Assembly (NCBI GenBank): GCA_963740255.1
Contig: CAVUDO010000006.1
Location: forward strand, 124,158 to 148,157
Length of the DNA stretch: 24,000 bases
Direction: 5' to 3'
Source: an uncultured Actinomycetota bacterium
GTDB lineage: Bacteria; Actinomycetota; Actinomycetes; Mycobacteriales; Cryptosporangiaceae
This document shows, piece by piece, positions 1,725 through 23,513 of the stretch (positions within the stretch are counted from its first letter, which is position 1; each line of letters opens with the position of its first letter). The notes beneath the pieces were generated by a model. That model saw only the letters and a list, made by a program, of their open reading frames with translations. It ran no database searches and was not told the DNA's origin. Both the position numbers and the translations under genes were made by a program.

Positions 1725-2783
1725 ATGTCAACGGTGACCGAGAAGCCCGAGACCGACGAAACAGTGGTTCACATCCTGTGGATCAACGCCGGGTTGAGTT
1801 GCGACGGCGACTCCGTCGCCCTGACGGCCGCGACCCAGCCGAGCATCGAGGAGATCGCGCTCAGCGCGCTTCCCGGGCTCCCGAAGATCGCGGTCCACTG
1901 GCCGCTGATCGACTTCGAGTGTGGGCCCGAGCAGGGTGCCGACAACTTCATCGAGTGGTTCCACAAGGCCGACCGCGGCGAGCTGGAGCCCTTCGTCCTG
2001 GTGGTCGAGGGATCGATCCCGAACGAGAAGATCAAGCCCGAGGGCTACTGGTGCGGTTTCGGCAACAACCCGGAGACGGGCCAGCCGATGACCACCAGCG
2101 AGTGGCTCGACCGGCTCGCCCCCAAGGCGTTGGTCGTCCTCGCGGTGGGCACCTGTGCCACCTACGGCGGCATCCACGCGATGGCCGGCAACCCGACGGG
2201 CGCCATGGGCGTACCGGACTACCTCGGCTGGGACTGGAAGTCCAAGGCCGGCATCCCGATCGTCTGCGTGCCGGGCTGCCCGATCCAGGGCGACAACCTC
2301 TCCGAGACGATCCTCTACCTGCTCTACCAGGCCACCGGCCAGGCGCCGATGATCCCGCTGGACGACGCGCTGCGGCCCACCTGGCTGTTCGGCGCCACCG
2401 TCCACGAGGGCTGCGACCGCGCTGGGTACTACGAGCAGGGCCAGTTCGCCACGGAGTACGGCTCGCCGCTGTGCCTGGTGAAACTGGGCTGCTGGGGGCC
2501 GGTCGTCAAGTGCAACGTGCCCAAGCGCGGCTGGATCAACGGGGTGGGTGGTTGCCCGAACGTGGGCGGCATCTGCATCGGCTGCACGATGCCCGGCTTC
2601 CCGGACAAGTTCATGCCGTTCATGGACGAGCCCCCGGGCAGCAAGATCTCCGCGGCGGCGAGCGGGGTCTACGGCGGAGTGATCCGCAAGCTCCGCACGA
2701 TCACCCTCGCCACCGTCGACGAGGAACCGAAGTGGAGAAAGAAGGGCCGCGAGCTGGCCACCGGCTACAAGCCGCCGTGGTGA
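1725..2783 (+). CDS. hhyS: [NiFe]-hydrogenase small subunit, group 1h/5 type, no Tat signal
   Basis: Track ORF 1614..2783. I place the start at ATG 1725, which has a GGAGGAG SD at 1714..1720 with a 4-nt spacer. The protein starts MSTVTEKPETDETVVHILWINAGLSCDGDSVALTAA. FeS-ligand Cys clusters typical of small subunits are present: GTCATYGG, VPGCPIQGDN, GCWGPVVKCNVPKRGW and GGCPNVGGICIGCTMPGFPD. Confidence 0.93.
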   Translation: MSTVTEKPETDETVVHILWINAGLSCDGDSVALTAATQPSIEEIALSALPGLPKIAVHWPLIDFECGPEQGADNFIEWFHKADRGELEPFVLVVEGSIPNEKIKPEGYWCGFGNNPETGQPMTTSEWLDRLAPKALVVLAVGTCATYGGIHAMAGNPTGAMGVPDYLGWDWKSKAGIPIVCVPGCPIQGDNLSETILYLLYQATGQAPMIPLDDALRPTWLFGATVHEGCDRAGYYEQGQFATEYGSPLCLVKLGCWGPVVKCNVPKRGWINGVGGCPNVGGICIGCTMPGFPDKFMPFMDEPPGSKISAAASGVYGGVIRKLRTITLATVDEEPKWRKKGRELATGYKPPW

Positions 2784-2838
2784 TGACGCGGCACCACTCC
2801 CCAATCTTCGACGACGGCACCAGAAGGGGTCCGAAACC

Positions 2839-4629
2839 ATGACGGCCACGCAGGAAAGAGGCGCCTCCAGCGGCGCCGACAAGACCAATCTTGTCGAGAT
2901 GAACTGGGACCCGGTGACCCGCATCGTGGGGAGCCTGGGCATCTACACCAAGATCGACTTCGCCCAGAAGAAGGTCGCCGAGTGTTACGCGACCTCTTCG
3001 ATCTTCCGCGGCTACAGCATCTTCATGAAGGGCAAGGACCCTCGGGACGCGCACTTCATCACGAGCCGGATCTGCGGGATCTGCGGCGACAACCACGCCA
3101 CCTGCTCGGTCTACAACCAGAACATGGCCTACGGTGTGCGCCCGCCGCACATCGCCGAGTGGATCATCAACCTCGGTGAGGCCGCCGAGTACATGTTCGA
3201 CCACAACATCTTCCAGGAGAACCTGGTCGGGGTGGACTACTGCGAGAAGATGATCTCGGAGACCAACCCCGGCGTCCTGGAACTGGCCAACCGCACCGAG
3301 TGCAACGGTGCCGCCGCCCATGGTTACAAGTACATCGGCGACATCATGCGCGCGCTCAATCCGTTCTCCGGTGAGTTCTACCGCGAGGCGCTCCAGGTCA
3401 GCCGGTACACGCGCGAGATGTTCTGCCTGATGGAGGGTCGCCACGTGCACCCCTCCACGCTCTACCCGGGCGGCGTCGGCACGGTCGCGTCGATCCAGCT
3501 GATCACCGACTACATGAGCCGCCTGATGCGGTACGTCGAGTTCATGAAGCGGGTCGTCCCGATGCACGACGACCTGTTCGACTTCATGTACCAGGCCCTT
3601 CCCGGCTACGAGATGGTCGGCTACCGCCGCACCCTCACCGCCTGCTGGGGAAGCCTGAACGACCCGGACTACTGCAACTTCGAGTACAAGGACATGACCG
3701 ACTGGGGACGCAAGATGTTCGTCACCCCCGGTGTGGTCGTGGACGGCCGGCTGGTCACCACCGACCTGGTGGAGATCAACCTGGGCATCCGCATCCTGCT
3801 CGGCAGTTCGTACTACCAGAGCTGGGAAGACCAGGAAATGTTCGTCACGCGCGACCCCCTGGGCAACCCGGTGCACCGCGACCACCCGTGGAACCAGACC
3901 ACGATCCCGGCCCCGCAGAAGCGGGACTTCGACGACAAGTACAGCTGGACGATGTCGCCGCGCTGGTTCGACGGCACCGACCACCTCGCCCTGGACACCG
4001 GCGGCGGCCCGCTCGCCCGACTCTGGCCGACGGCGCTCGCCGGCCTGGTGGACATCGGCTACGTGAAGTCGACCGGCCACAGCGTGCAGATCAACCTGCC
4101 GCGCACGGCCACCAAGCCCGAGGTCAGCTTCGAGTGGAAGATTCCCCAGTGGAGCAACGCGATCGAGCGTAACCGCGCCCGGACGTACTTCCAGGCCTAC
4201 GCGGCGGGGTGCGCGCTGCACTTCGTCGACAAGGCTCTGGAGGAGGTCCGTGCCGGCCACACCAAGACGTGGGAGTCGTTCAAGGTGCCGGACGAGGCCG
4301 TGAGCGTCGGCTTCACCGAGGCCGTGCGCGGCGTGCTGTCGCACCACATGGTCATCCGCGACGGCAAGATCGCCAACTACCACCCCTACCCGCCGACGCC
4401 CTGGAACGGCAGCGTGCGCGACAAGTTCGGTACGCCCGGCCCCTACGAGGACGCGGTGCAGAACACGCCGATCTTCGAGGAGAACCCGCCGGACAACTTC
4501 AAGGGCATCGACATCATGCGGGCGGTGCGCAGCTTCGACCCGTGCCTGCCGTGTGGTGTGCACATGTATCTCGGCGACGGGAAGGTCGTCGACAAGATGC
4601 ACTCTCCTTCCATGCTCAACCAGATCTGA
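2839..4629 (+). CDS. hhyL: [NiFe]-hydrogenase large subunit, group 1h/5 type
   Basis: 596 aa. N-terminal NiFe-ligand motif TSRICGICGDNHATCS and C-terminal motif SFDPCLPCGVHMY, followed by a 21-residue tail (MYLGDGKVVDKMHSPSMLNQI) that is the expected endopeptidase-cleaved extension. Confidence 0.97.
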   Translation: MTATQERGASSGADKTNLVEMNWDPVTRIVGSLGIYTKIDFAQKKVAECYATSSIFRGYSIFMKGKDPRDAHFITSRICGICGDNHATCSVYNQNMAYGVRPPHIAEWIINLGEAAEYMFDHNIFQENLVGVDYCEKMISETNPGVLELANRTECNGAAAHGYKYIGDIMRALNPFSGEFYREALQVSRYTREMFCLMEGRHVHPSTLYPGGVGTVASIQLITDYMSRLMRYVEFMKRVVPMHDDLFDFMYQALPGYEMVGYRRTLTACWGSLNDPDYCNFEYKDMTDWGRKMFVTPGVVVDGRLVTTDLVEINLGIRILLGSSYYQSWEDQEMFVTRDPLGNPVHRDHPWNQTTIPAPQKRDFDDKYSWTMSPRWFDGTDHLALDTGGGPLARLWPTALAGLVDIGYVKSTGHSVQINLPRTATKPEVSFEWKIPQWSNAIERNRARTYFQAYAAGCALHFVDKALEEVRAGHTKTWESFKVPDEAVSVGFTEAVRGVLSHHMVIRDGKIANYHPYPPTPWNGSVRDKFGTPGPYEDAVQNTPIFEENPPDNFKGIDIMRAVRSFDPCLPCGVHMYLGDGKVVDKMHSPSMLNQI

Positions 4630-6042: not shown

Positions 6043-6684
6043 ATGTCCTCGGCGCTCTCGTTCTCCTGTACCGGAGCGCGACCCGAGCAGTACGCGTCCA
6101 GCCCCACGATGATCTTCGACCTCAAGATCAAGGAGAGTTCCGGCGTCCGGGTGCACACCGCGCTGCTCCGGGCCCAGCTCCGGATCGAGCCGCACCGCCG
6201 CCGGTACTCCGCCGAGGAGGCGGCGGGCGTCGACGACATCTTCGGCGAGGTGTCGCGGTGGGGCGAGACGCTCAAGCCGATGCAGCTGGCGATGGCCAAC
6301 ATCCAGACGCCGTCGTTCACCACCGAGATCGACGTTCCGCTGCCGGTCTCGTTCTCCTACGACATCGAGGTCGCGTCCAACAAGTACCTGCACTCGATGA
6401 AGGACGGCGAGATCCCGATCCTGATCCTGTTCAGCGGCTCGGTGTTCTACCAGACCGAGAACGGTGTGCAGATCGACCCGGTCGCCTGGCACGAGGAGGC
6501 GAACTTCCGCCTGCCGGTGGCCACCTGGCGGCAGATGATGGACCTGCACTTCCCTGGCCAGAGCTGGATCCAGATGCGCGTGGACACCGTCGACAAGCTC
6601 CGCCGGTACCGCGCCAAGGAAGCCGACCTGACCTGGGACCACACGATCGAGCGGCTGCTCAAGGCCGCGGGTGAGCCGACATGA
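6043..6684 (+). CDS. Conserved hydrogenase-cluster protein of unknown function (DUF6084-like; probably hhaB)
   Basis: Track ORF 6034..6684. ATG 6043 lies 1 nt after the upstream TGA (6039..6041); GTG 6034 is an alternative. The protein starts MSSALSFSCTGARPEQYASSPTMIFDLKIKESSGVRVHTALLRAQLRIEPHRRRY. It has good coding bias and no motif I can assign to a function. Confidence 0.75.
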   Translation: MSSALSFSCTGARPEQYASSPTMIFDLKIKESSGVRVHTALLRAQLRIEPHRRRYSAEEAAGVDDIFGEVSRWGETLKPMQLAMANIQTPSFTTEIDVPLPVSFSYDIEVASNKYLHSMKDGEIPILILFSGSVFYQTENGVQIDPVAWHEEANFRLPVATWRQMMDLHFPGQSWIQMRVDTVDKLRRYRAKEADLTWDHTIERLLKAAGEPT

Positions 6685-8324
6685 CCGCCGACGCCGACGT
6701 CACCCGCGCGGGCATGACCAGTGCCGAGGTGACCAGTGCCGACGGCGTCATGGCCGACCTCACCGCGGCATTGGACGAGGTCAACCAGATCGCCGACACG
6801 GTGCTGCTGGAGGGCTACCTGCTCTACCCGTACCGCGCGTCCGCCCAGAAGAACCAGCTGCGCTGGCAGTTCGGGGTGCTGGCGCCGCGGTCGTACGCCG
6901 AGCAGTCCAGCGAGAACTGGTACACCCGCACCGAGTGCCTGCTCGAACCCGGCGAGAACGCGGTCGTCCAGGTGCGGATGCGGTTTCTGCACCAGCAGAA
7001 GCGGGCCGTGGAGAAGGCCGTCGGGCCCGACGAGTTCGCGCACACCGACGAGCTGGCCGTCGACAACCGCCTGATGAGCGCCTGGGACGAGGGTGTGCCC
7101 GAGCAGGTGGACATCGCGGTGCCGCTGGCGTCGCTGCTCGCCGGCGAGCACGTCGAGCCGTTCGACCGGCCCGCCACCGAGACCGTCGAGCTGGTCACCG
7201 ACACCGAAGGTGTGGTGCACGGCCGCCTGGTGCGGACGTGTTCGCCGGTCACCGGCGTCATCCGGATGTCGGCGTCCCCCGTCGACGGGCCGTACGGCGC
7301 GGTACGGGTGCGGGTCGTGGTCGAGAACACCACCGAGTACGCCCCGGCCGACGCCGACCCGCAGCAGCGCAGCCGGGACGCGGCCATCCCCGCCTCGCTG
7401 ATCGCCGCGCACACGATCCTGGCCGTCTCGGCCGGCTCGTTCGTCTCCACGGTCGACCCGCCGGAGTGGGCCAGGGCCGCCAGCGCCGACAACGCGAACG
7501 AGAACACCTGGCCCGTGCTGGCCGGCCCCGAGGGCCGCAGCGACCTGATCCTGTCCTCGCCGATCATCCTGCCCGAGCATCCGCAGGTGGCGCCGGAGAG
7601 CCCGACCAACCTCTTCGACGGCTGCGAGATCGACGAGATCCTCAGCCTGCGGACGCTCACCCTGACCGACCGGGAGAAGGCCGAGGCCCGCGGCACGGAT
7701 GCCCGGGCCGCCTCGATCATCGACGGCATCGACAACATGCCGCCGGAGGTGTTCGAACGGCTGCACGGCGCGATCCGGTACCTGGAGGGCACACCCGGCC
7801 AGCAGGCCGCCGCCGGCCCGACTGCCGCCGGCCCGCCGGCCACGTCGACCGGCGCCCAGGCGGCGAATCCGTTCGGCGACCCGTTCACCCAGCCGCTGCC
7901 CGGCATGCCGATGTACACCGCCGACGGCGAGGTGACCGCGCCGGTGCCGGGTGCGGTGCCGGCCGCCCGCGACCCGTTCGCCGACCCGCTGCTGCCCGGT
8001 GTGCCGACGTTCACGGAGGTCAACGACGCGCCGTGGTGGGATGAGGCCAAGGAGGCCGCGGTCTCGCCGGAGACCGACACGATCCTGGTCGGAGGCGTCG
8101 AGGTGGGCAGGGGCACCCGGGTGATCCTGCACCCGGGCGGTCGTACCGACGCCCAGGACATCTTCCTGATCGGACAGTCCGCCACCGTCGAGTCGGTCAT
8201 CCACGACGTGGACGGCCAGATCCACCTCGCGGTCTCGATCGACGCCGACCCCGCCCGGGACATCCAGTCCTCGCACGGCCGGTTCCGGTACTTCCGCCCG
8301 GAAGAGGTCGAGGTGGCGCGATGA
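6681..8324 (+). CDS. Conserved hydrogenase-cluster protein of unknown function (probably hhaC), 547 aa
   Basis: ATGA overlap with the upstream stop (6681..6684). Conserved-looking N-terminal block LLEGYLLYPYRASAQKNQLRWQFGVLAP. A Pro/Ala-rich linker at about 7790..8040 leads to a compact C-terminal domain of about 85 aa (TILVGGVEVGRGTRVILHPGG...RFRYFRPEEVEV). Confidence 0.75.
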   Translation: MTADADVTRAGMTSAEVTSADGVMADLTAALDEVNQIADTVLLEGYLLYPYRASAQKNQLRWQFGVLAPRSYAEQSSENWYTRTECLLEPGENAVVQVRMRFLHQQKRAVEKAVGPDEFAHTDELAVDNRLMSAWDEGVPEQVDIAVPLASLLAGEHVEPFDRPATETVELVTDTEGVVHGRLVRTCSPVTGVIRMSASPVDGPYGAVRVRVVVENTTEYAPADADPQQRSRDAAIPASLIAAHTILAVSAGSFVSTVDPPEWARAASADNANENTWPVLAGPEGRSDLILSSPIILPEHPQVAPESPTNLFDGCEIDEILSLRTLTLTDREKAEARGTDARAASIIDGIDNMPPEVFERLHGAIRYLEGTPGQQAAAGPTAAGPPATSTGAQAANPFGDPFTQPLPGMPMYTADGEVTAPVPGAVPAARDPFADPLLPGVPTFTEVNDAPWWDEAKEAAVSPETDTILVGGVEVGRGTRVILHPGGRTDAQDIFLIGQSATVESVIHDVDGQIHLAVSIDADPARDIQSSHGRFRYFRPEEVEVAR

Positions 8325-9963: not shown

Positions 9964-10236
9964 ATGTGCCTCGGGATTCCCGGCGAACTCGTCGAGCGGA
10001 GCTTGGAACACAAGGACCTCGCGATGGTGGACGTGGCGGGCGCCAAGCGGATGGTGAACATCGGCCTGCTGGAGGACGAGGAACTCAACGAAGGCGACTG
10101 GGTGCTGATCCACGTCGGATTCGCTCTCTCCAAGATCGACGAGAAAGAGGCGCAGCACGCCTTGAAGATGCTCGAAGGCATGGGCCAGGCCTACACCGAC
10201 GAGCTGATCGCACTGGCCAAGTCCGACATCGTCTAG
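9964..10236 (+). CDS. hypC: Hydrogenase maturation chaperone HypC
   Basis: Begins MCLGIPGELVE, with the essential Cys at position 2, and contains GDWVLIHVGFALSKIDEKEA. An AAAGGAGA SD lies upstream. Confidence 0.95.
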   Translation: MCLGIPGELVERSLEHKDLAMVDVAGAKRMVNIGLLEDEELNEGDWVLIHVGFALSKIDEKEAQHALKMLEGMGQAYTDELIALAKSDIV

Positions 10237-10293: not shown

Positions 10294-11421
10294 ATGCGTT
10301 TCGTCGATGAGTTCCGCGACGCCGAGAAGGCGCGCGTGCTTTCACACCGGATTGCCGAGCTCTGCGAGCCGGGCCGGCACTACAAGTTCATGGAGGTGTG
10401 CGGCGGGCACACCCACACGATCTACAAGCACGGGCTCGAGGACTACCTGCCCGAGCAGGTGACGCTGGTGCACGGCCCCGGCTGCCCGGTGTGCGTGATC
10501 CCGATGGGCCGGGTGGACGACGCGATCGCCATCGCCGAGGAGCCGGACGTCATCATGACCTCGTTCGGCGACATGATGCGGGTGCCGGGCGGGCGCGGGT
10601 CGTTCTTCGACTCGATGGCCAACGGCGCCGACATCCGGATGGTGTACTCCCCGCTGGACGCCCTGAAGATCGCGCGGAACAACCCGAACAAGAAGGTCGT
10701 CTTCATGGCGATCGGGTTCGAGACCACCGCGCCGTCCACCGCGATGACCGTGATGCGGGCGAAGGCCGAGGGACTGGAGAACTTCTCGATCTTCTGCAAC
10801 CACGTCACGATCATCCCGGCGATCAAGGCCATCCTCGACTCGCCCGACCTGCGGCTGGACGGCTTCCTCGGCCCTGGCCACGTGTCCACCGTGATCGGCT
10901 GCCGGCCGTACGAGTTCATCGCGCGCGACCACGGCAAGCCGCTGGTCACCGCCGGCTTCGAGCCGCTGGACATCCTGCAGTCGGTGTACATGCTGCTCAT
11001 GCAGCTCAAGGAGGGCCGTTCCGAGGTCGAGAACCAGTACGCCCGGGTGGTGCCGTGGGACGGCAACCCCAAGGCGCTCGAGGTGATCGCCGAGGTGATG
11101 GAACTGCGGCCCTACTTCGAGTGGCGCGGGCTCGGCTTCATCTCCCACTCCGCGCTGCGGATGAACGACGCCCACGCGTCCTTCGACGCCGAGAAGATTT
11201 TCTCGGTGCCCGGGGTGCGGGTCGCCGACCCCAAGGCGTGCCAGTGCGGCGAGGTGCTCAAGGGCGTCCTCAAGCCGTGGGAGTGCAAGGTGTTCGGCAC
11301 GGCGTGCACGCCCGAGACCCCGATCGGCACCTGCATGGTGTCCTCGGAGGGCGCGTGCGCCGCGTACTACAACTTCGGCCGCTTCAGCCGGGAGCGCGTC
11401 AAGGAGGCGACCCGCACGTGA
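10294..11421 (+). CDS. hypD: Hydrogenase maturation protein HypD
   Basis: 375 aa with motifs FMEVCGGHTHTIYKHG, HGPGCPVCV and GFETTAP, and a C-terminal Cys cluster CQCGEVLKG...C. A GAGGAGG SD lies upstream. Confidence 0.97.
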   Translation: MRFVDEFRDAEKARVLSHRIAELCEPGRHYKFMEVCGGHTHTIYKHGLEDYLPEQVTLVHGPGCPVCVIPMGRVDDAIAIAEEPDVIMTSFGDMMRVPGGRGSFFDSMANGADIRMVYSPLDALKIARNNPNKKVVFMAIGFETTAPSTAMTVMRAKAEGLENFSIFCNHVTIIPAIKAILDSPDLRLDGFLGPGHVSTVIGCRPYEFIARDHGKPLVTAGFEPLDILQSVYMLLMQLKEGRSEVENQYARVVPWDGNPKALEVIAEVMELRPYFEWRGLGFISHSALRMNDAHASFDAEKIFSVPGVRVADPKACQCGEVLKGVLKPWECKVFGTACTPETPIGTCMVSSEGACAAYYNFGRFSRERVKEATRT

Positions 11422-12656
11422 CGGATCGGGTCGCCCGGACGCCGGTGGATGTCGCGATCGAAAGGCGAGGGACCGTGAACCTCGAGCAGGAGCAGAAGGA
11501 GACCACCGCGGCCTGGGCCGAGGAGGCCGTGACCGAGTCCGAGCAGGACGAGGACGGGCCGCACCACCACATCGGGCAGGAGCACCGCACCCGCGAGCAG
11601 CAGGTGCTCGACCGGATCGACCGGGCCCGCCGGCGCAAGCCCCGGGTCAAGGAAGAACGCATCACGCTGTCGCACGGGGCGGGCGGTAAGGCCACTCACA
11701 CCCTGATCGACGCGATCTTCCTGGAGGCGTTCCGCAACGAGCAGCTGGAGCAGATGGAGGACGGCGCGACGCTCAGCATCGGCGGTGCCAGGTTGGCTTT
11801 CACCACGGACTCCTACGTGGTCTCGCCGCTGTTCTTCCCCGGCGGCGACATCGGCGACCTGGCGGTGAACGGCACGGTCAACGACCTCGCCGTGTGCGGT
11901 GCCCGGCCGCTGTACCTGTCCTGCGGCTTCATCCTGGAGGAGGGGTTCGAGGTCGCGAAGCTGCGGCAGATCACCGACTCGATGGCGGCCGCGGCCAGGG
12001 CGGCCGGAGTGCAGATCGTCACCGGCGACACGAAGGTCGTGCAGCAGGGCAAGGGCGACGGCTGCTACATCAACACCGCCGGCGTCGGCCTGCTCGACCG
12101 GCCGACCCCGCTCAGTGCCGCGTCGGTCAAGCCGGGGGACAAGATCCTGGTGTCGGGTCCGATCGGCGACCACGGCATCACGATCCTGCTGGCCCGGGGC
12201 GAGCTGGACATCGTCGCCGACATCGAGTCCGACACCGCGCCGATGCACGAGCTGATCGCGGGGCTGCTCGACGCGGTGCCCGGTGTGCGGACGCTGCGCG
12301 ACGCGACCCGGGGCGGCGTGGCCACCATCCTCAACGAGGTGGCGGTGGCGTCCCAGGTCGCGGTGGTGGTGGACGAGGCCGCCGTGCCGGTACGCGCCGA
12401 GGTCAACGGCGCCTGCGAACTGCTCGGCATCGACCCGCTCTACGTCGCCTGCGAGGGACGGCTGGTCGCGATCGTGGACGGCTCGATGGTCGACGACGCG
12501 CTGGCCGCGCTCAAGGCGCATCCGCTCGGCGAGGGAGCCGCGGTGATCGGCACGATCAAGGACGACCCGCCCGGGCTGGTGCTGCTCAAGACCACGTTCG
12601 GGGGCACCCGGATCGTCGACATGCTCGTCGGCGACCCGCTACCGCGGATCTGCTGA
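11418..12656 (+). CDS. hypE: Hydrogenase maturation protein HypE (carbamoyl dehydratase) with an unusual N-terminal extension
   Basis: GTG 11418 overlaps the hypD stop (GTGA) and follows an AAGGAGG SD (11401..11407); GTG 11475 and GTG 11604 are alternatives. The conserved core starts at ITLSHGAGGKATHTLIDAIFLEAF (11661) and ends with the canonical PLPRIC C-terminus. Confidence 0.93.
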   Translation: MTDRVARTPVDVAIERRGTVNLEQEQKETTAAWAEEAVTESEQDEDGPHHHIGQEHRTREQQVLDRIDRARRRKPRVKEERITLSHGAGGKATHTLIDAIFLEAFRNEQLEQMEDGATLSIGGARLAFTTDSYVVSPLFFPGGDIGDLAVNGTVNDLAVCGARPLYLSCGFILEEGFEVAKLRQITDSMAAAARAAGVQIVTGDTKVVQQGKGDGCYINTAGVGLLDRPTPLSAASVKPGDKILVSGPIGDHGITILLARGELDIVADIESDTAPMHELIAGLLDAVPGVRTLRDATRGGVATILNEVAVASQVAVVVDEAAVPVRAEVNGACELLGIDPLYVACEGRLVAIVDGSMVDDALAALKAHPLGEGAAVIGTIKDDPPGLVLLKTTFGGTRIVDMLVGDPLPRIC

Positions 12657-17946: not shown

Positions 17947-18294
17947 GTGGAGTTCACGTGGAGGCCGAACCGGGACGTCGCCATCGACGGCGCCCCGGAC
18001 GATGCCGTGCTCACCTCCTTCCTCTGGGGTGACGTGGGGCGGACGCCGTCGTCGGTCGAGTACGTGATGCGGACGATCGAGGAACAGCGCGACGACCCCG
18101 ACGACGACGAATGGATGACGGGCAACGGCTACTCGCTCAGAGTCCGGGACGGCGACGTCCTGATCCGGAGCAACTTCGACCAGTTCCCCGAGACGACCTA
18201 TCCGGTCGAGCGGGTGCTCGGCGCGCTGCGGGAGTTCCGGGACTGGCTGCGCGACAACCCGCGGCCGCCGGTGGACACGGCGTCAGGAGGGTGA
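17947..18294 (+). CDS. Putative cognate immunity protein (115 aa), family not recognised
   Basis: GTG 17947 lies 6 nt after a GGGAGAG SD and 17 nt after the toxin stop; it is the only convincingly coding part of track ORF 16903..18294. The protein is acidic: VEFTWRPNRDVAIDGAPDDAVLTSFLWGDVGRTPSSVEYVMRTIEEQRDDPDDDEWMTGNGYSLRV.... The call rests on position and size only. Confidence 0.55.
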   Translation: MEFTWRPNRDVAIDGAPDDAVLTSFLWGDVGRTPSSVEYVMRTIEEQRDDPDDDEWMTGNGYSLRVRDGDVLIRSNFDQFPETTYPVERVLGALREFRDWLRDNPRPPVDTASGG

Positions 18295-20607
18295 GGCCGG
18301 GCCGGCGGCTGCCCGGTCGCGGGCTCCGGCGACGGCGGCCTGGCCGAGGCTGATGCCGCCGTCGTTGGGCGGCACCCGGGAGTGGACGAGCACCCGGAAG
18401 CCCCGTGCGGTGAGCAGGGTGGCCAGGCGTTCGAGCAGGGTCAGGTTCTGGAACACGCCGCCGGACAGCGCGACCGTGGCCAGGCCGGTGTCGGCGCGGA
18501 CGGCGTCCACCGCGTCGGCCAGTACGGCGGCGAACCCGTTGTGGAACCGGGCTGCGACGATTCCCACGGCCACGCCGGCCGAGACGTCGTCGACCACCGC
18601 CCGGATCAGGTCGCTGCCCAGGATCACCCCGGCGTCGGAGACCCGGGCCGGGTAGCCGCCCCGTTCGTCCGGGTCGACGCGCTGCTCGAATTCGATGGCC
18701 GCCTGGCCCTCGTAGTGCACGGCGTCCCGGATGCCGGCGAGCGCGGCCACCGCGTCGAACAGCCGGCCCGCACTGGTCGTCACCGGGGCGCTCGTCCCGG
18801 TGCGGGCCAGGCTGGTGACCAGCGGCCACTGGCCGGAGTGGCGCGCCGCCACGGCCAGGCCGGCCGGGACCTCTTCGCCGTACGCGTGGAACAGGTGCGA
18901 CGCGGCCATCCGCCACGGCTCGCGGATCGCGCTGGCGCCGCCGGGCAGCCGCACCGGTTCGAGATGGGCGACCCGTTCGTAGCCGGCCAGGTCGGCCACC
19001 AGGATCTCGCCGCCCCAGAGCGTGCCGTCGTCGCCGTAGCCCGTGCCGTCGCAGGCGACCCCGATCACCGGCCCTGCCTCGCCGTTGTCGGCCAGGCAGG
19101 AGGCGATGTGCGCGTGGTGGTGCTGGACGCCGACCAGATCGACGCCTGCCGCGCCGGCGCCGTCCGCGGCGTGATCGCCGTACGTGTCCAGGGCGTACTT
19201 GGTGGACAGGTACTCCGGGTGCAGGTCGTAGGCGACCACCTCGGGGGTCACGTCGAACAGCCGCTGGAAGTGCTCGATGCCGGTGGTGAACGAACGCAGC
19301 GTCTCGAAGTTCTCCAGGTCGCCGATGTGGTGGGACAGGAACGCGCGTTCGCCCTTGGCCAGGCAGAAGGTGTTCTTCAGCTCGGCACCGCAGGCCAGCA
19401 CCGGCCGCGGGAAGCGCCACGGCAGCCGCAGCGGGGCGGGCGCGTAGCCGCGGGACCTGCGCACCGGCAGCTCGCGCCCGTCGACCACCCGCACCACGGA
19501 GTCGTCCGTGCGCATGTGGATGGGCCGGTCGTGCACGAGGAAGCCGTCCGCGATCGGCACCAGCCGTTCCAGCGCGTCGGCGTCGAGGTAGGCGATGGGT
19601 TCGTCCGAGACGTTGCCGCTGGTCAGCACGAACGGCCCGGGCAGTGCCGCGGCGAGCAGATGGTGCAGCGGCGTGTAGGGCAGCATCACGCCGAGGAACC
19701 GGTTGGCGACCGTGACGCTCGGCGCCGGGCCGGCGTCGTCGCGGCGGCGGAGCAGCACGATGGGCCGGCGGCGCGAGGCGAGCACCCGTACCTCGGCCGG
19801 CGTCACCTCGCACCACGCGCGGACGGCCGCCAGGTCCCGGGCCATCACGGCGAACGGCTTGTCCTCGCGGTGCTTGCGCGCCCGCAGCGTGGCCACCGCA
19901 TGCTCCGAGGCCGCGTCCACCGCGAGGTGGTACCCGCCCAGCCCCTTGACGGCCAGCACTCTGCCGGCCGCCAGCCAGGACGCGGCCACCGCGACGGGGT
20001 CGCCGTCCACGGCCCGCCCGGAGGCGTCGAGGAACCGCAGCGTCGGCCCGCAGGCCGGACAGCACACCGGCTGGGCGTGGAACCGCCGGTCGCCCGGGTC
20101 GTGGTACTCGGCCGCGCACTCCGCGCACATCGCGAAGCCGGACATCGTGGTCGCCGCCCGGTCGTAGGGCACCGACTGGACGATCGTGAACCGCGGGCCG
20201 CAGTTCGTGCAGTTGGTGAACGGGTAGGCGTACCGGCGGTCGTCCGGGTCGGCGATCTCGGCCAGGCAGTCGTCGCAGGTCGCGGTGTCGGCCGAGACCA
20301 GGGCGTCCCGCGGCCCGGCGGACGAGCTGGTGACGATGACGAAGTCACGGTCGCCGTTGGGAACGGCCGGCGCGGCGACGACCCGTTCGACCGAGGCGAG
20401 CACCGGCGGGCGCAGCCGCAGCGCCGCGACGAACGCGTCGAGGGCCGTCGGGTCGCCCTCGGCCTCGATGAACACCCCGGCCTCGTCGTTGCCGACGAAG
20501 CCGCCGAGCCCGTACTCGCCGGCCAGGGCGTGGACGAACGGCCGGAAGCCCACGCCCTGCACGATGCCCTCGACCCGGATCCGGGAGCGCACCCGCGCGT
20601 CGGTCAC
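18283..20607 (-). CDS. hypF: Carbamoyltransferase HypF
   Basis: 774 aa with an acylphosphatase domain (RIRVEGIVQGVGFRPFVHALA), two zinc-finger pairs (CDDCLAEIADPDDRRYAYPFTNCTNCGPRFT; CAECAAEYHDPGDRRFHAQPVCCPACGP), a YrdC-like domain and a Kae1-like C-terminal domain. Confidence 0.97.
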   Translation of the reverse strand: MTDARVRSRIRVEGIVQGVGFRPFVHALAGEYGLGGFVGNDEAGVFIEAEGDPTALDAFVAALRLRPPVLASVERVVAAPAVPNGDRDFVIVTSSSAGPRDALVSADTATCDDCLAEIADPDDRRYAYPFTNCTNCGPRFTIVQSVPYDRAATTMSGFAMCAECAAEYHDPGDRRFHAQPVCCPACGPTLRFLDASGRAVDGDPVAVAASWLAAGRVLAVKGLGGYHLAVDAASEHAVATLRARKHREDKPFAVMARDLAAVRAWCEVTPAEVRVLASRRRPIVLLRRRDDAGPAPSVTVANRFLGVMLPYTPLHHLLAAALPGPFVLTSGNVSDEPIAYLDADALERLVPIADGFLVHDRPIHMRTDDSVVRVVDGRELPVRRSRGYAPAPLRLPWRFPRPVLACGAELKNTFCLAKGERAFLSHHIGDLENFETLRSFTTGIEHFQRLFDVTPEVVAYDLHPEYLSTKYALDTYGDHAADGAGAAGVDLVGVQHHHAHIASCLADNGEAGPVIGVACDGTGYGDDGTLWGGEILVADLAGYERVAHLEPVRLPGGASAIREPWRMAASHLFHAYGEEVPAGLAVAARHSGQWPLVTSLARTGTSAPVTTSAGRLFDAVAALAGIRDAVHYEGQAAIEFEQRVDPDERGGYPARVSDAGVILGSDLIRAVVDDVSAGVAVGIVAARFHNGFAAVLADAVDAVRADTGLATVALSGGVFQNLTLLERLATLLTARGFRVLVHSRVPPNDGGISLGQAAVAGARDRAAAGPASPS

Positions 20608-20617
20608 GCGGTCATGC

Positions 20618-21298
20618 CTAGGCGCCGAGGGCCTGCTGGGTGAGCTCCCACAGCACGTCGTACGTGGTGGCCTGCGTCTCCTGGATGCGGTGCACCGACA
20701 CCGACGGCACCGAGAAGAGGTAGTCGATCGTGCCGGCCTCGGCCATCTTGCCGCCGTCGTAGCCGGCGAAGCCCACCGTGACCATGCCGATCCGCTGGGC
20801 CTCCTCGAAGGCGCGGAGCACGTTGGCCGAACCGCCGCTGGTGGACAGGCCGACCGCGATGTCGCCCGGCTTGGCCTTCGCGGCGAGCGGACGGGCGAAG
20901 ATCACCTCGAAGCCGACGTCGTTGGAGAGTGCGGTGAGCACCGCGACGTCGGTGGTCAGCGCCGCGGCCGGCAGCGGACGGGCACCGGGGCCGGGGTTGA
21001 GGAAGAGCTGGGCCAGCGCCTCGGCGTCCGTGCTGCTGCCGCCGTTGCCGAACGTGTAGAGCCACCCGCCCGCGGCGAACGACTCGGCCATGGCCGTCGC
21101 GCACGCGGCGAGCTGCCCGCCGTACCTCTCCACCATCTTCTCGCGCACGGCGACGATCTCCGCCGCCTTCTCGGTGGTGGAGCGCTGGACCTCCGCCAGC
21201 ACGGCGTCGAGGTCGGACGCACCGGAATACAGGAACGGGTAGAGCGACTCGACACCCCCGCCACGACCCCCGCGACCACGGGGTGCGGGTTCGGTCAT
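20618..21298 (-). CDS. SIS-domain protein (GmhA/DiaA-like), hydrogenase-cluster paralogue B
   Basis: Track ORF 20618..21505. I start at ATG 21298, which forms an ATGA overlap with the upstream gene's stop. SIS motifs present: TFGNGGSSTDAEALAQ, GDIAVGLSTSGGSANVLRA and TVGFAGYDGG. Confidence 0.85.
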   Translation of the reverse strand: MTEPAPRGRGGRGGGVESLYPFLYSGASDLDAVLAEVQRSTTEKAAEIVAVREKMVERYGGQLAACATAMAESFAAGGWLYTFGNGGSSTDAEALAQLFLNPGPGARPLPAAALTTDVAVLTALSNDVGFEVIFARPLAAKAKPGDIAVGLSTSGGSANVLRAFEEAQRIGMVTVGFAGYDGGKMAEAGTIDYLFSVPSVSVHRIQETQATTYDVLWELTQQALGA

Positions 21299-21597
21299 GC
21301 AGGAGCCTCTTCGGGCCGGATCACGGCGATCGCCTCCTTGGCGTGCACCAAGACTACGTCGCCGACGACGGCGTCCACCAGCGCGACGCTGACCTCGTCG
21401 GTGCCCTCGCCGGTGTCGACCAGCGCGAGTCCGAACTCCTTCAGCTCGGTGATCGTCACGGCCACGGCCTCGTCCGAGCAGGTGATGCAGTGGTCGCCGT
21501 AGCACTCGGCCGGACCGGGCGGGCTCACCGCCACCATGGGCGCCGGCCCGCCGGTGAACCCTTCGGGGCGCGGCCCGATCGTCACGTCGTCGCTCAT
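21295..21597 (-). CDS. Atypical HypC/HupF-like protein with internal CxxC instead of an N-terminal Cys
   Basis: 100 aa. After a 30-residue Pro/Gly-rich leader comes DHCITCSDEAVAVTITELKEFGLALVDTGEGTDEVSVALVDAVVGDVVLVHAKEAIAVI. The segment GDVVLVHAKEAIAVI aligns by eye with HypC's GxWVLVHVGFAxxxI. Confidence 0.7.
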   Translation of the reverse strand: MSDDVTIGPRPEGFTGGPAPMVAVSPPGPAECYGDHCITCSDEAVAVTITELKEFGLALVDTGEGTDEVSVALVDAVVGDVVLVHAKEAIAVIRPEEAPA

Positions 21598-21619
21598 CGG
21601 CCCGCCCCGCTTCGCTCGC

Positions 21620-22237
21620 TCATCGGATGACCCCCGGGTCGAGTACGCCCGGTTGTTCGAAGAAGACGTGCACCAGCTCCCAGAGCAGGTGGTAGGTGGT
21701 CACGTGGATTTCCTTGACCACCCGCGGGTCGTCGGAACGGGCGACGAAGGCGTGGCCGGCCAGGTTGTCACGGGCGATGGCGCCGCCGTCCCCGCCGGTC
21801 AGCGCGACCGTCAGCAGACCCCGCTCGCGGGCCACCTCCAGCGCGCGGGCCACGTTGCGGCAGTTCCCGTCCGGCGAGATGCCCAGCGCGATGTCGTCCG
21901 GGTGGCCCATCAGCGCCAGCTGCGTCGCGAAGGTCTCGTCCATCCCGGCCGACGCGGCGATGCCGGTGGCGGTCGAGGCGTCGTTGGCCAGCGAGATCGC
22001 CGGCAGGGCGCGCTTGCCGACGATGACCGGGTGGACGAACTCCACCACCACGTGCTGGGCGTCCGTCGCGCAGCCGCCGTTGCCGAAGGTGACGAGCTTG
22101 CCGCCGCGGTGGAAGCGCAGCGCGATGTCGTAGCAGGCGCGGCCGACCCGTTCGGCGTCGGCGGCCAGCGCGTTGCCGGGAGCGATCCGGCGGGCGAACG
22201 CCTCCGCGGCGCGCGCCGCCGTCACCTCGACCGTCAT
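21620..22237 (-). CDS. SIS-domain protein (GmhA/DiaA-like), hydrogenase-cluster paralogue A
   Basis: Track ORF 21620..22426. I start at ATG 22237, which forms an ATGA overlap with the padR stop. The protein contains TFGNGGCATDAQHVVVEF. The second SIS motif is degenerate (ALGISPDGNCRNVARA instead of S-x-S-G-x-S). Confidence 0.85.
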   Translation of the reverse strand: MTVEVTAARAAEAFARRIAPGNALAADAERVGRACYDIALRFHRGGKLVTFGNGGCATDAQHVVVEFVHPVIVGKRALPAISLANDASTATGIAASAGMDETFATQLALMGHPDDIALGISPDGNCRNVARALEVARERGLLTVALTGGDGGAIARDNLAGHAFVARSDDPRVVKEIHVTTYHLLWELVHVFFEQPGVLDPGVIR

Positions 22238-22647
22238 GCCTGTTCGCGCTCCTCCAGCTCTGGTTCGGCCACATCGGCACCGGACACGCCCGCGTACCGC
22301 TTGAGGAAGTCCTCGATCATGTCGCGGGTGGCCTCCAGGGCGCAGGCCCGGCCTTTCAGGCTCTCCAGGCCCCGCGCGGTGAGGTGGTACGTCCGCCGTG
22401 CCGGCCCGGCGGTGGACATCCGCCACGACGACACGACGAGCCCCTGGTGCTCCAGTGCCCGCAGGGCGCGGTACACCCCACCGGCGTCGATCTCGGATCC
22501 GGCGAAGGCGCGGAGTCGGTCGACGAGGTCATAGCCGTGGTCCGGCCGCTCGTAGATGAGCAGCAGGAGACACGGCTTGAGAAAATCTCGTGGCTCGTAC
22601 TCGAGCATCGACACGCCTTTGTGTGGACGCGACAGGGGGAGATCCAT
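22234..22647 (-). CDS. PadR-family transcriptional regulator
   Basis: Winged-helix core LKPCLLLLIYERPDHGYDLVDRLRAF...GGVYRALRALEHQGLVVSSW...RRTYHLTARG. Start ATG 22647 follows a GAGGA SD 4 nt upstream; ATG 22608 (AAAGG SD) is an alternative. The upstream part of track ORF 22234..22755 is not needed. Confidence 0.85.
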   Translation of the reverse strand: MDLPLSRPHKGVSMLEYEPRDFLKPCLLLLIYERPDHGYDLVDRLRAFAGSEIDAGGVYRALRALEHQGLVVSSWRMSTAGPARRTYHLTARGLESLKGRACALEATRDMIEDFLKRYAGVSGADVAEPELEEREQA

Positions 22648-22888
22648 TCGATCCTCGCACCCGGACCTACCCCAGACAAGGCCGTACACGGCCCGTCGCT
22701 CCGCCACATTCGTCCTGGATGCGACATAGCCGACCAGTCGATCCCGACGTCGCACGTTCGTCCTCGCCGCCGCGCACCAGCACCCTCAGCGGTCTCGGGA
22801 GTTCATCCGACAGCACGTGCCCGGCGAGAATGCCGGGCGCTCGCCGGGGCCTTTCGGCGGACCCGGCCGGCTCTCCTATCGTCGGGGA
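22648..22888. promoter_or_regulatory. Divergent intergenic region between padR and the GNAT gene
   Basis: Contains an inverted repeat GCCGT-AC-ACGGC (22681..22692) and a 12-bp direct repeat CACATTCGTCCT (22705..22716) / CACGTTCGTCCT (22753..22764) with 11 of 12 bases identical. Confidence 0.35.
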
Positions 22889-23449
22889 ATGCTGCGTCCG
22901 GAGTATCCGATCGAGACCGCCAGGCTGCTCCTCCGACCGTTCGCCGGCCGTGACCTCGACGACCTCTACGACTACCAGTCGCGGCCGGACGTGGTGCGGT
23001 ACCTCTACTGGCAGCAGCGCGACCGGGGCCAGGTGGCCGAGGCGCTCGTCCAGAAGATCGGGCAGGCCACGATCGAGAATCCCGGCGACAGTCTCGTCCT
23101 GGCCGTGGTGCGGCCCGAGATGGGCCGGGTCGTCGGCGAGGTCAACCTGCACTGCCGCAGCCGCGACCACCGACAGGGTGAGTTCGGGTTCGTCCTCCAC
23201 CCGGACCACCACGGCCGGGGCTTCGCGACCGAGGCGGCGCGGGCGGTGCTCGACCTGGGGTTCGGTCCGTTGGGACTGCACCGGATCGAGGGCCGCTGCG
23301 ACGTCCGCAACACCCCGTCGACCCGGGTGATGGAGCGGCTCGGCATGCGCCGGGAGGCGCACTTCGTGCACAACGAGATGTTCAAGGGCGAGTGGGGCGA
23401 CGAGTACGTCTACGCGCTGCTCGACCACGAGTGGACGGCGGGCGCCTGA
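22889..23449 (+). CDS. GNAT-family N-acetyltransferase (RimJ/RimL-like)
   Basis: ATG 22889 follows a GGGGA SD. The protein starts MLRPEYPIETARLLLRPFAGRDLDDLYDY. The acetyl-CoA-binding region is GFVLHPDHHGRGFATEAARAVLDLGFGPLGLHRIEGRCDVRNTPSTRVMERLGMRRE. Confidence 0.9.
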   Translation: MLRPEYPIETARLLLRPFAGRDLDDLYDYQSRPDVVRYLYWQQRDRGQVAEALVQKIGQATIENPGDSLVLAVVRPEMGRVVGEVNLHCRSRDHRQGEFGFVLHPDHHGRGFATEAARAVLDLGFGPLGLHRIEGRCDVRNTPSTRVMERLGMRREAHFVHNEMFKGEWGDEYVYALLDHEWTAGA

Positions 23450-23513
23450 CGGTTGCGGTGGCCGACCGTTGCGGCTGGCGGCTGCACGGCTGACGGTGGC
23501 GCGGCCGTCCGGC

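Follow-up and report, generated by a model that had tools for sequence, protein, structure and literature searches.

The high-affinity, oxygen-insensitive [NiFe]-hydrogenases Hhy and Huc remove more atmospheric H2 than any other biological sink and are sought after as catalysts. In this study, we examine a three-gene module of their assembly operons in a 24,000-nucleotide (nt) stretch of DNA from an uncultured actinomycetotal bacterium of the Cryptosporangiaceae (contig CAVUDO010000006.1, positions 124,158 to 148,157), called here, at its full length, the window. The module encodes two paralogous proteins with a sugar isomerase (SIS) domain, SIS-A and SIS-B, and between them a relative of the maturation protein HypC. 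We favor, with a probability of about one half, an explanation in which these three proteins form a complex with one composite site of the GmhA type and serve as an accessory factor for the HypCDEF machinery.

Genes named gmhA have been met beside hydrogenase genes before. They are frequent neighbors of group 1h and 2a hydrogenase genes according to one report, itself citing a thesis (PMC11879354), and appear as such in a figure legend (PMC5900883); an SIS cluster also counts among the conserved neighbors of hydrogenase genes (PMC12727194). In Mycobacterium smegmatis, the "gmhA" gene MSMEG_2706 lies between hypE (MSMEG_2705) and hypF (MSMEG_2711), and a microarray table counts it, together with hyp and hhy genes, as regulated (PMC5445863). 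It is the SIS-B orthologue, next to a gene for a SIS-A::HypC-like fusion. The gene order of MSMEG_2705-2711 matches that of a mycobacterium-like locus in our own collection (L108). In Acidithiobacillus ferrooxidans, GmhA rises together with the Hyp proteins and was counted among the induced maturation proteins (PMC7735108). A recent review names the poor understanding of maturases as the obstacle to producing high-affinity hydrogenases (PMC10657181). Our literature search returned no functional test of the module, no recognition of its paired half-sites, and no description of the fusions reported below, in agreement with an earlier account made from the DNA letters alone (hereafter the sequence-only reading), which knew of no demonstrated role.

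Five described systems come closest, the PadR family, taken up further below, among them. GmhA is a homotetrameric, zinc-dependent isomerase with four identical sites, in which one monomer contributes two His and a Glu as metal ligands and an adjacent one adds Gln (PMC5387315); in Burkholderia pseudomallei these are His64, Glu68, His183, and Gln175 (PMC5705639). According to a modeling study, the monomer that carries the phosphate loop also supplies Asn and Gln, and the catalytic Glu comes from a different one (PMC7705670). The sites are paired reciprocally across two subunits and show half-of-sites reactivity, only one of a pair being active at a time (PMC5705639). DiaA, a DnaA-binding adaptor (PMC4697000), is a tetramer of the GmhA fold recruited to a protein-assembly role, its catalytic Glu lost and its phosphate loop altered (PMC7705670, PMC4697000). 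The third system comprises HypC and HybG together with HupF and HoxL, all built on the OB-fold HupF_HypC domain. HupF and HoxL are extra HypC paralogues found beside a canonical hypC in proteobacterial aerobic H2 oxidizers. HypX (HoxX), the aerobic CO-ligand synthase, is likewise an accessory maturation factor, restricted to aerobes and encoded beside hyp or structural genes; yet its fold (formyltransferase plus crotonase) is unrelated to that of the module, and its distribution is not cleanly complementary.

A Conserved Three-Gene Unit

Five genes follow one another head to tail on the minus strand, from 22608 to 18283 (aa, amino acids):

22234..22608, minus strand: padR, 124 aa; PF03551 at 63.1 bits against a cut-off of 27
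21620..22237, minus strand: SIS-A, 205 aa; SIS_2 at 54 bits, TIGR00441 at 114.8 bits
21295..21597, minus strand: HypC-like gene, 100 aa; HupF_HypC (PF01455) at 40.2 bits against a cut-off of 28.5
20618..21298, minus strand: SIS-B, 226 aa; SIS_2 at 70 bits, TIGR00441 at 118.2 bits
18283..20607, minus strand: hypF, carbamoyltransferase and last gene of the unit; TIGR00143 at 764.6 bits against 466.1

On the sequence, ATGA overlaps join the padR stop to the SIS-A start (22237..22234) and the HypC-like gene to SIS-B (21298..21295), whereas gaps of 22 nt (21619..21598) and 10 nt (20617..20608) separate SIS-A from the HypC-like gene and SIS-B from hypF, respectively. This five-gene operon, with its overlaps and gaps and the motifs STSGGSANV in SIS-B and SPDGNCRNV in SIS-A, is as the sequence-only reading had described it. 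HypF has all of its acylphosphatase, Zn finger, YrdC-like, and Kae1-like domains. A promoter and terminator scan of 18000..23500 returned nothing, including between the five genes, a result that is uninformative in a high-GC actinomycete.

The arrangement of the three middle genes is far from chance. Across 80 independent genome loci, found through the HypC-like protein, the same-strand order SIS-A, HypC-like, SIS-B is observed in 70, each time with hhy or hyp genes alongside; the HypC-like gene and SIS-B overlap by 4 nt in 39 of these. Natural fusions join the same parts. In 17 of 20 loci from other families, SIS-A-like and SIS-B-like domains make up a single open reading frame (ORF) of 394-546 aa. 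Where the SIS pair was fused and the retrieved DNA included hypC/hypD, 14 clusters were checked, and every one has an independent tri-Cys HypC-like gene between hypC and hypD. Loci of the Mycobacterium type have SIS-A fused to the HypC-like domain. The most complete case is a 467-aa ORF between hypC and hypD (locus L098, genome G247), which carries SIS-A, HypC-like, and SIS-B in one chain. Triple fusions fall into at least 120 protein clusters. Among relatives of the 467-aa protein, the best 120 (425-488 aa), from Solirubrobacterales and an Acidobacteriota metagenome-assembled genome (MAG), all have SIS plus HupF_HypC domains and bear generic names only. An AlphaFold2 (AF2) model of the triple fusion is compact and of high confidence, with a predicted local distance difference test (pLDDT) of 91 and a predicted template modeling score (pTM) of 0.90. 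Foldseek aligned its SIS domain to GmhA chains at template modeling (TM) scores of 0.8-0.9 and returned single-domain GmhA matches only, with no solved structure of the whole architecture; two-SIS proteins such as GlmS align poorly to the model (root mean square deviation about 7 Å). SIS-A, SIS-B, and the HypC-like protein very probably constitute one complex with a role in hydrogenase maturation.

Complementary Half-Sites in SIS-A and SIS-B

SIS-A and SIS-B, 39% identical to each other, would be diverged copies of GmhA. They have the fold of the GmhA structures from B. pseudomallei (2X3Y, 2XBL, 5LTZ) and Neisseria gonorrhoeae (5I01), with phmmer E-values to GmhA structures of 1e-26 to 1e-32, and together hold every residue of one GmhA site. 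Both lie far below the cut-off of the gmhA equivalog TIGR00441 (209.45 bits); no protein of the window's genome scores above it, and SIS-A and SIS-B are the only GmhA-like genes there. Position by position, the residues of the B. pseudomallei enzyme are distributed as follows:

His64 equivalent: His in SIS-A (H62); Ala in SIS-B
Glu68 equivalent: Glu in SIS-A (E66); Leu in SIS-B
Gln175 equivalent: Lys in SIS-A (K175); Gln in SIS-B (Q206)
His183 equivalent: His in SIS-A (H183); Asp in SIS-B
Phosphate loop: S-P-D-G-N-C in SIS-A (SPDGNCRNV), degenerate; S-T-S-G-G-S in SIS-B (STSGGSANV), intact
GNGGS and Asn-Asp contacts: lost in SIS-A; kept in SIS-B

Neither protein alone has all four Zn ligands, and the set is complete only when both are combined. 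SIS-A has H69 and H190 in addition; SIS-B has E207 next to Q206 and an N-terminal LYPFLY motif. The division is maintained among the 77 SIS-A and 72 SIS-B sequences (about 75 orthologous pairs) drawn from the 80 loci. H62 and E66 are each present in 75 of the 77 SIS-A orthologues and H183 in all, the phosphate loop in none; GNGGS, ND, and STSGxS are found in all 72 SIS-B orthologues and Q206 in 70, with Leu or Met at the Glu68 equivalent and a variable residue at that of His64. The same split recurs in 20 distant Actinomycetota loci.

Because the halves of a GmhA site come from neighboring subunits, A and B together should restore a full metal-plus-phosphosugar site, one per pair. To this composite site SIS-A would give His62, Glu66, and His183, and SIS-B the trans-acting Gln206, the S-T-S-G-x-S phosphate loop with S152, S154, and S157, the sugar-binding Asn, and the Asn-Asp pair. 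The counterparts in the modeled triple fusion are H58, E62, and H169 for the first half and Q452 and S398-S403 for the second. The reciprocal A:B site, with K175 in SIS-A and Ala, Leu, and Asp in SIS-B, appears dead in the window's lineage. In place of the four identical sites of the GmhA homotetramer, there are thus two paralogues with half a site each, and a half-of-sites enzyme would be the kind whose duplicates can each lose the complementary half without cost. The sequence-only reading had taken the pair for a heteromer of one active and one adaptor subunit: the heteromer gains support from the natural fusions of the SIS pair and of all three proteins, but the division of labor does not stand, each protein being half of a composite site. 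Given the residues kept, binding or catalysis of a ligand has likely been retained there.

Two other explanations bear on this site. Ordinary heptose biosynthesis, in which SIS-A and SIS-B would make D-glycero-D-manno-heptose-7-P for an envelope or glycoprotein pathway and lie beside hyp genes incidentally, agrees with their best database names ("D-sedoheptulose 7-phosphate isomerase") and with the GmhA fold (TM 0.8-0.9). Yet neither protein has a complete site by itself, both fall below the equivalog cut-off, and GmhB was not found in the window's genome (95.6% complete), where TIGR00213 has no match at E <= 0.001. A heptose pathway is missing from this genome, and the genes, unlike gmhA proper, are always in hyp clusters; their place in hyp operons holds across classes, and many lineages have them joined to a HypC-like domain. 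We consider this explanation extremely improbable. Alternatively, the SIS heteromer could be a noncatalytic scaffold of the DiaA kind that merely organizes the HypC-like protein, HypD, and/or the large-subunit precursor, with a structural metal and no turnover of phosphosugar. DiaA sets the precedent for the GmhA fold as an adaptor (PMC4697000). Both SIS proteins match DiaA at 82 bits, the distance from the gmhA equivalog and the fusion to a chaperone-type domain would fit, and SIS-A has extra invariant His residues (H43, H69, H162, and H190) unrelated to isomerase chemistry. However, whereas DiaA has neither the catalytic Glu nor an unaltered phosphate loop, SIS-A and SIS-B strictly keep all residues of one composite site (S-T-S-G-x-S, Asn, Asn-Asp, Gln, and Glu), invariant across classes and therefore hard to explain without ligand binding. 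A pure scaffold is thus unlikely, if the least so of the alternatives weighed here.

As a separate observation, the reciprocal site is not dead in the fused SIS-A/SIS-B proteins (L089-L106): the metal positions of their SIS-B domain are occupied by Asp, Asp, and His, and their SIS-A domain offers Gln plus a conserved His and Asp in the former phosphate loop. This might make it an additional metal site of another kind. In the clade of the window, the corresponding residues are replaced by Lys175 and Leu.

The HypC-Like Protein

The HypC-like protein opens with a Pro/Gly-rich leader, followed by C32-x4-C37-x2-C40-S-D and an OB-fold region with H85. It has 972 homologues, the closest from a Cryptosporangiaceae MAG. 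As with HupF and HoxL in proteobacterial aerobes, its gene is a second one of the HypC type in a genome that also has a canonical hypC. Although recognized by Pfam, it scores only 20.3 bits with the NCBIfam HypC model TIGR00074, for which the cut-off is 48. Within the domain shared with HypC/HybG and HupF/HoxL, C37 aligns with HypC Cys2 and H85 with HypC His51 (Escherichia coli His51), both being invariant (alignments A1 and A2). The N-terminal HypC signature M-C-[LI]-[GA]-[IV]-P is absent, since the aligned Cys is residue 37 and internal; for this reason the protein, judged by its sequence, cannot work as an N-terminal-Cys HypC. In contrast to HypC, it has this Cys in a C-x-x-C pair behind a leader, or behind a whole SIS domain, and no C-terminal helix.

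The fused relatives, with a whole SIS domain before the Cys motif, place this motif within ~12 residues of the SIS-A helix with the metal-binding His. Only the C-x-x-C pair and the His are universal across fused forms, the His85 equivalent being invariant in the 120 fusions. As the leaders of homologues vary, the start is uncertain and the true one may lie downstream of 21597. The Pro/Gly-rich leader, like the N-terminus of SIS-B, which is rich in Gly and Arg, resembles a former linker.

Linkage to Hydrogenases and Distribution

We surveyed an even sample of 401 Actinomycetota genomes, with tallies made by hand from tables. A strong HypC-like match occurs in 14 of them; in 12 it is accompanied by a large subunit with 60% or more identity to HhyL, the one encoded in the window, and the other two have different [NiFe] large subunits on the same contig. 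Conversely, 39 of the 47 genomes with a 1h-type large subunit have two or more SIS hits. Such hits are present in 65 genomes overall, 12 without a match to the 1h large-subunit query, and one further genome without that match (G219) has the HypC-like gene. Among these 13 query-negative genomes, a Pfam large subunit exceeds the cut-off in five and is weak in one more; the remaining seven are five MAGs of 130-390 contigs plus two genomes (G163 and G101) with weak SIS hits typical of ordinary GmhA. Hence, the 13 provide no solid case of the module without a hydrogenase. An equal frequency of the triad in genomes lacking hydrogenases, which the sequence-only reading had named as contrary evidence, was looked for in this way, and no solid case emerged among the 401.

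The module is not specific to group 1h. It is also found in hypF-hypC-hypD-hypE clusters beside hydrogenases 37-40% identical to HhyL and, on one Thermoleophilia-type contig, next to a locus of 3b-like gene content, which encodes a large subunit of 435 aa, a small subunit, and NAD-binding/DHODB and Fer4 subunits. The tie to hydrogenases proposed by the sequence-only reading is therefore borne out; that reading named 1h enzymes, and the module also has these other partners and is missing from some 1h genomes. The HypD proteins of 72 module loci, window included (71-89% identity), form a clade apart from those of the SIS-less loci (48-53%), a small sample of three.

This range of partners bears on the possibility of a metabolic sensor, whose composite site would sense a sugar phosphate of the pentose phosphate pathway and gate the HypC-like protein, and hence maturation, by carbon status. 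Starvation-induced expression of high-affinity hydrogenases would fit, as would the intact phosphosugar-binding half and the use of SIS domains as sensor modules in RpiR/MurR regulators, to which weak matches were seen; mycobacterial hydrogenase expression is under catabolite control, according to one report (PMC13098282). Yet a pure sensor has no need of the invariant catalytic Glu/His and metal ligands, and the module is linked to a 3b-like hydrogenase as well. A sensor seems to us distinctly less probable than a scaffold.

A further proposal concerns cofactor chemistry in air. A metal-enediolate of the GmhA type, drawn from a sugar phosphate, would serve as two-electron donor or as carbon source for the CO ligand, or the site would donate Fe(II), the product passing to the Cys-x-x-Cys HypC paralogue in a HypX-independent route of Actinomycetota. 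HypX was not found in the window's genome, in that none of its formyltransferase domains lies within a HypX-sized frame with a crotonase domain; three such domains are present, in Fmt, PurN-PurH, and one other short-frame protein. Two Streptomyces-like genomes have Hhy loci without the module and a 593-595-aa gene of HypX architecture (Formyl_trans_N + Formyl_trans_C + ECH_1; L113:9173-10954 in G054, L119:2067-3854 in G264), immediately preceding hhyS in one genome and immediately following hypE in the other. These points would favor the proposal, as would an invariant composite metal/enediol site tethered to a HypC-type domain. Against it, a HypX search of the 401 genomes, with three candidates per genome scored, gave eight positives, three of them also with an SIS pair, and showed no HypX in four SIS-less 1h genomes; the two distributions thus do not look complementary, and we did not use mutual exclusion of HypX and module as support. 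Formation of CO from heptose phosphate has no known chemical precedent, and the module also accompanies a 3b-like enzyme. We regard this route as highly unlikely, more so than a sensor.

Two loci seem to be in disrepair. A mycobacterium-like locus (L107; G231:C1:2943000-2962000) has kept hupD, hypF, a SIS-A::HypC-like fusion, SIS-B, hypE, hypC, and hypD, together with two short hhyS fragments (67-80% identical) and no hhyL, other [NiFe] large subunits being encoded elsewhere in the genome; it looks like a decaying Hhy locus. At G225:C9:98940-100696, a 1h-type large-subunit gene is fragmented and contains several TGA codons in frame, owing to either pseudogenization or faulty assembly.

Proposed Mechanism

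To return to the accessory factor that we favor, the complex would aid the building of the Fe(CN)2CO-Ni center of [NiFe]-hydrogenases in aerobic Actinomycetota. SIS-A and SIS-B would assemble into an A2B2-type heteromer, or fused chains into a dimer, with one intact metal-plus-phosphosugar site per A:B pair, a geometry that we infer from GmhA. The HypC-like protein would dock at the SIS complex and take up, or hand over, iron or an iron-ligand intermediate to or from HypD. Handling of iron or of an iron-ligand intermediate through the Cys pair is a tentative element of this scheme, somewhat less probable than not.

Several points count against this explanation. About 8 of the 47 sampled genomes with a 1h hydrogenase do without the module, which is therefore not universally required; the exceptions include Streptomyces-like genomes whose Hhy loci have neither an SIS gene nor a CxxC HypC-like gene. 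Triple fusions do not conserve the first of the Cys residues in the HypC-like motif. That the phosphate loop belongs to the Gln-donating monomer rests on one modeling paper (PMC7705670), and three chains contribute to each GmhA site (PMC11056994), so that the A2B2 geometry is not proven. Finally, the metal could be purely structural.

PadR and Genomic Setting

Conservation in an alignment with 13 PadR orthologues begins at the Met of 22608 (MLEYEPRDF...), which is for this reason the most likely padR start, rather than the upstream 22647 of the sequence-only reading. The protein has the winged-helix domain of the PadR family, of the small single-domain type. Its best NCBIfam match, and nearest named model, is PhaQ (TIGR02719), at 78 bits against a cut-off of 139, so that no curated equivalog is reached. 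Module-linked PadR proteins stand out from the family as an orthogroup of their own, with an N-terminal M-x-x-C-E-P-R-N-F...P-C-L-L and a gene always directly upstream of the module. Orthologues (42-61% identical) occur in 13 of the 80 loci, restricted to those in which hypF comes after the module or the order is the variant padR, HypC-like, hypF, SIS-A, SIS-B; the padR/SIS-A stop/start overlap is present in five of nine measured cases. As it is confined to these 13 loci and tied to one arrangement, PadR is a dedicated, optional, lineage-restricted regulator of one operon architecture and not integral to the module. It would act as a local repressor or activator of the padR-sisA-hypCL-sisB-hypF unit in a minority of lineages. 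The translational coupling of padR to SIS-A that the sequence-only reading had noted is genuine, but not the place of PadR as a standard part, and the small-molecule-responsive circuit suggested there found no supporting sign. A search for exact inverted repeats in the 250 nt upstream of 14 padR genes gave GC-rich chance palindromes only and no conserved operator.

Two smaller features of PadR were seen. A word GTGCAAC-N-ATC lies 60-70 nt upstream of padR in L023, L059, and L080, and the window has a two-mismatch copy at 22649-22661 on the minus strand (GGTGCGAGGATCG), too weak to be called an operator. The module-linked PadR proteins (L009-L080) share two N-terminal Cys residues, of which the first is Tyr in the window copy (22569-22608); the pair may be a redox- or metal-sensing feature, lost in the window.

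The plus strand of the window carries a locus of the group-1h type with hhyS, hhyL, NifU-like, DUF5947, DUF6084, a 547-aa ORF, hupD, YceI-like, hypC, hypD, and hypE, the NifU-like, DUF5947, and DUF6084 accessory genes being identified by Pfam:

1725..4629, plus strand: hhyS and hhyL, by Pfam matches; the genome's only [NiFe]-hydrogenase (single large-subunit locus)
9964..10236, plus strand: canonical hypC (MCLGIPG); PF01455 at 83 bits
10294..11421, plus strand: hypD; HypD at 517 bits
about 11418..12656, plus strand: hypE, by reading of the frame, which ends in PRIC

The HhyL translation contains TSRICGICGDNH and SFDPCLPCGVH, motifs that we take to place it in group 1h/5. For hypE, a GTG at 11418 overlapping the hypD stop (GTGA) gives a 412-aa protein with an acidic, His-containing N-terminal extension of 60 residues, and an alternative start at 11604 gives the standard 350 aa. 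The 547-aa ORF (6681-8324, plus strand), between DUF6084 and hupD, has no Pfam family and yet holds its position in the majority of Hhy loci examined (27-55% identity, frequently split over two matches). The genes hypB and hypA lie together outside the window, on another contig of the same genome (G000:C5:166850-168041), an assembly of 3.69 Mb in seven contigs; the G+C content of the window is 64-75%. A divergent GNAT gene (22817..23449) is without counterpart in the 80 loci and was therefore left out of the module.

Overall, the module is an assembly of known folds in a new arrangement, strongly conserved, and ranks among the most conserved unexplained parts of Hhy/Huc assembly operons. Its description as a three-part unit with one rebuilt GmhA-type site sharpens the vague notion of a "gmhA neighbor" into a specific, testable system. 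It also illustrates neatly, in nature, how the two copies of a duplicated half-of-sites enzyme can each come to lack the half that the other keeps.

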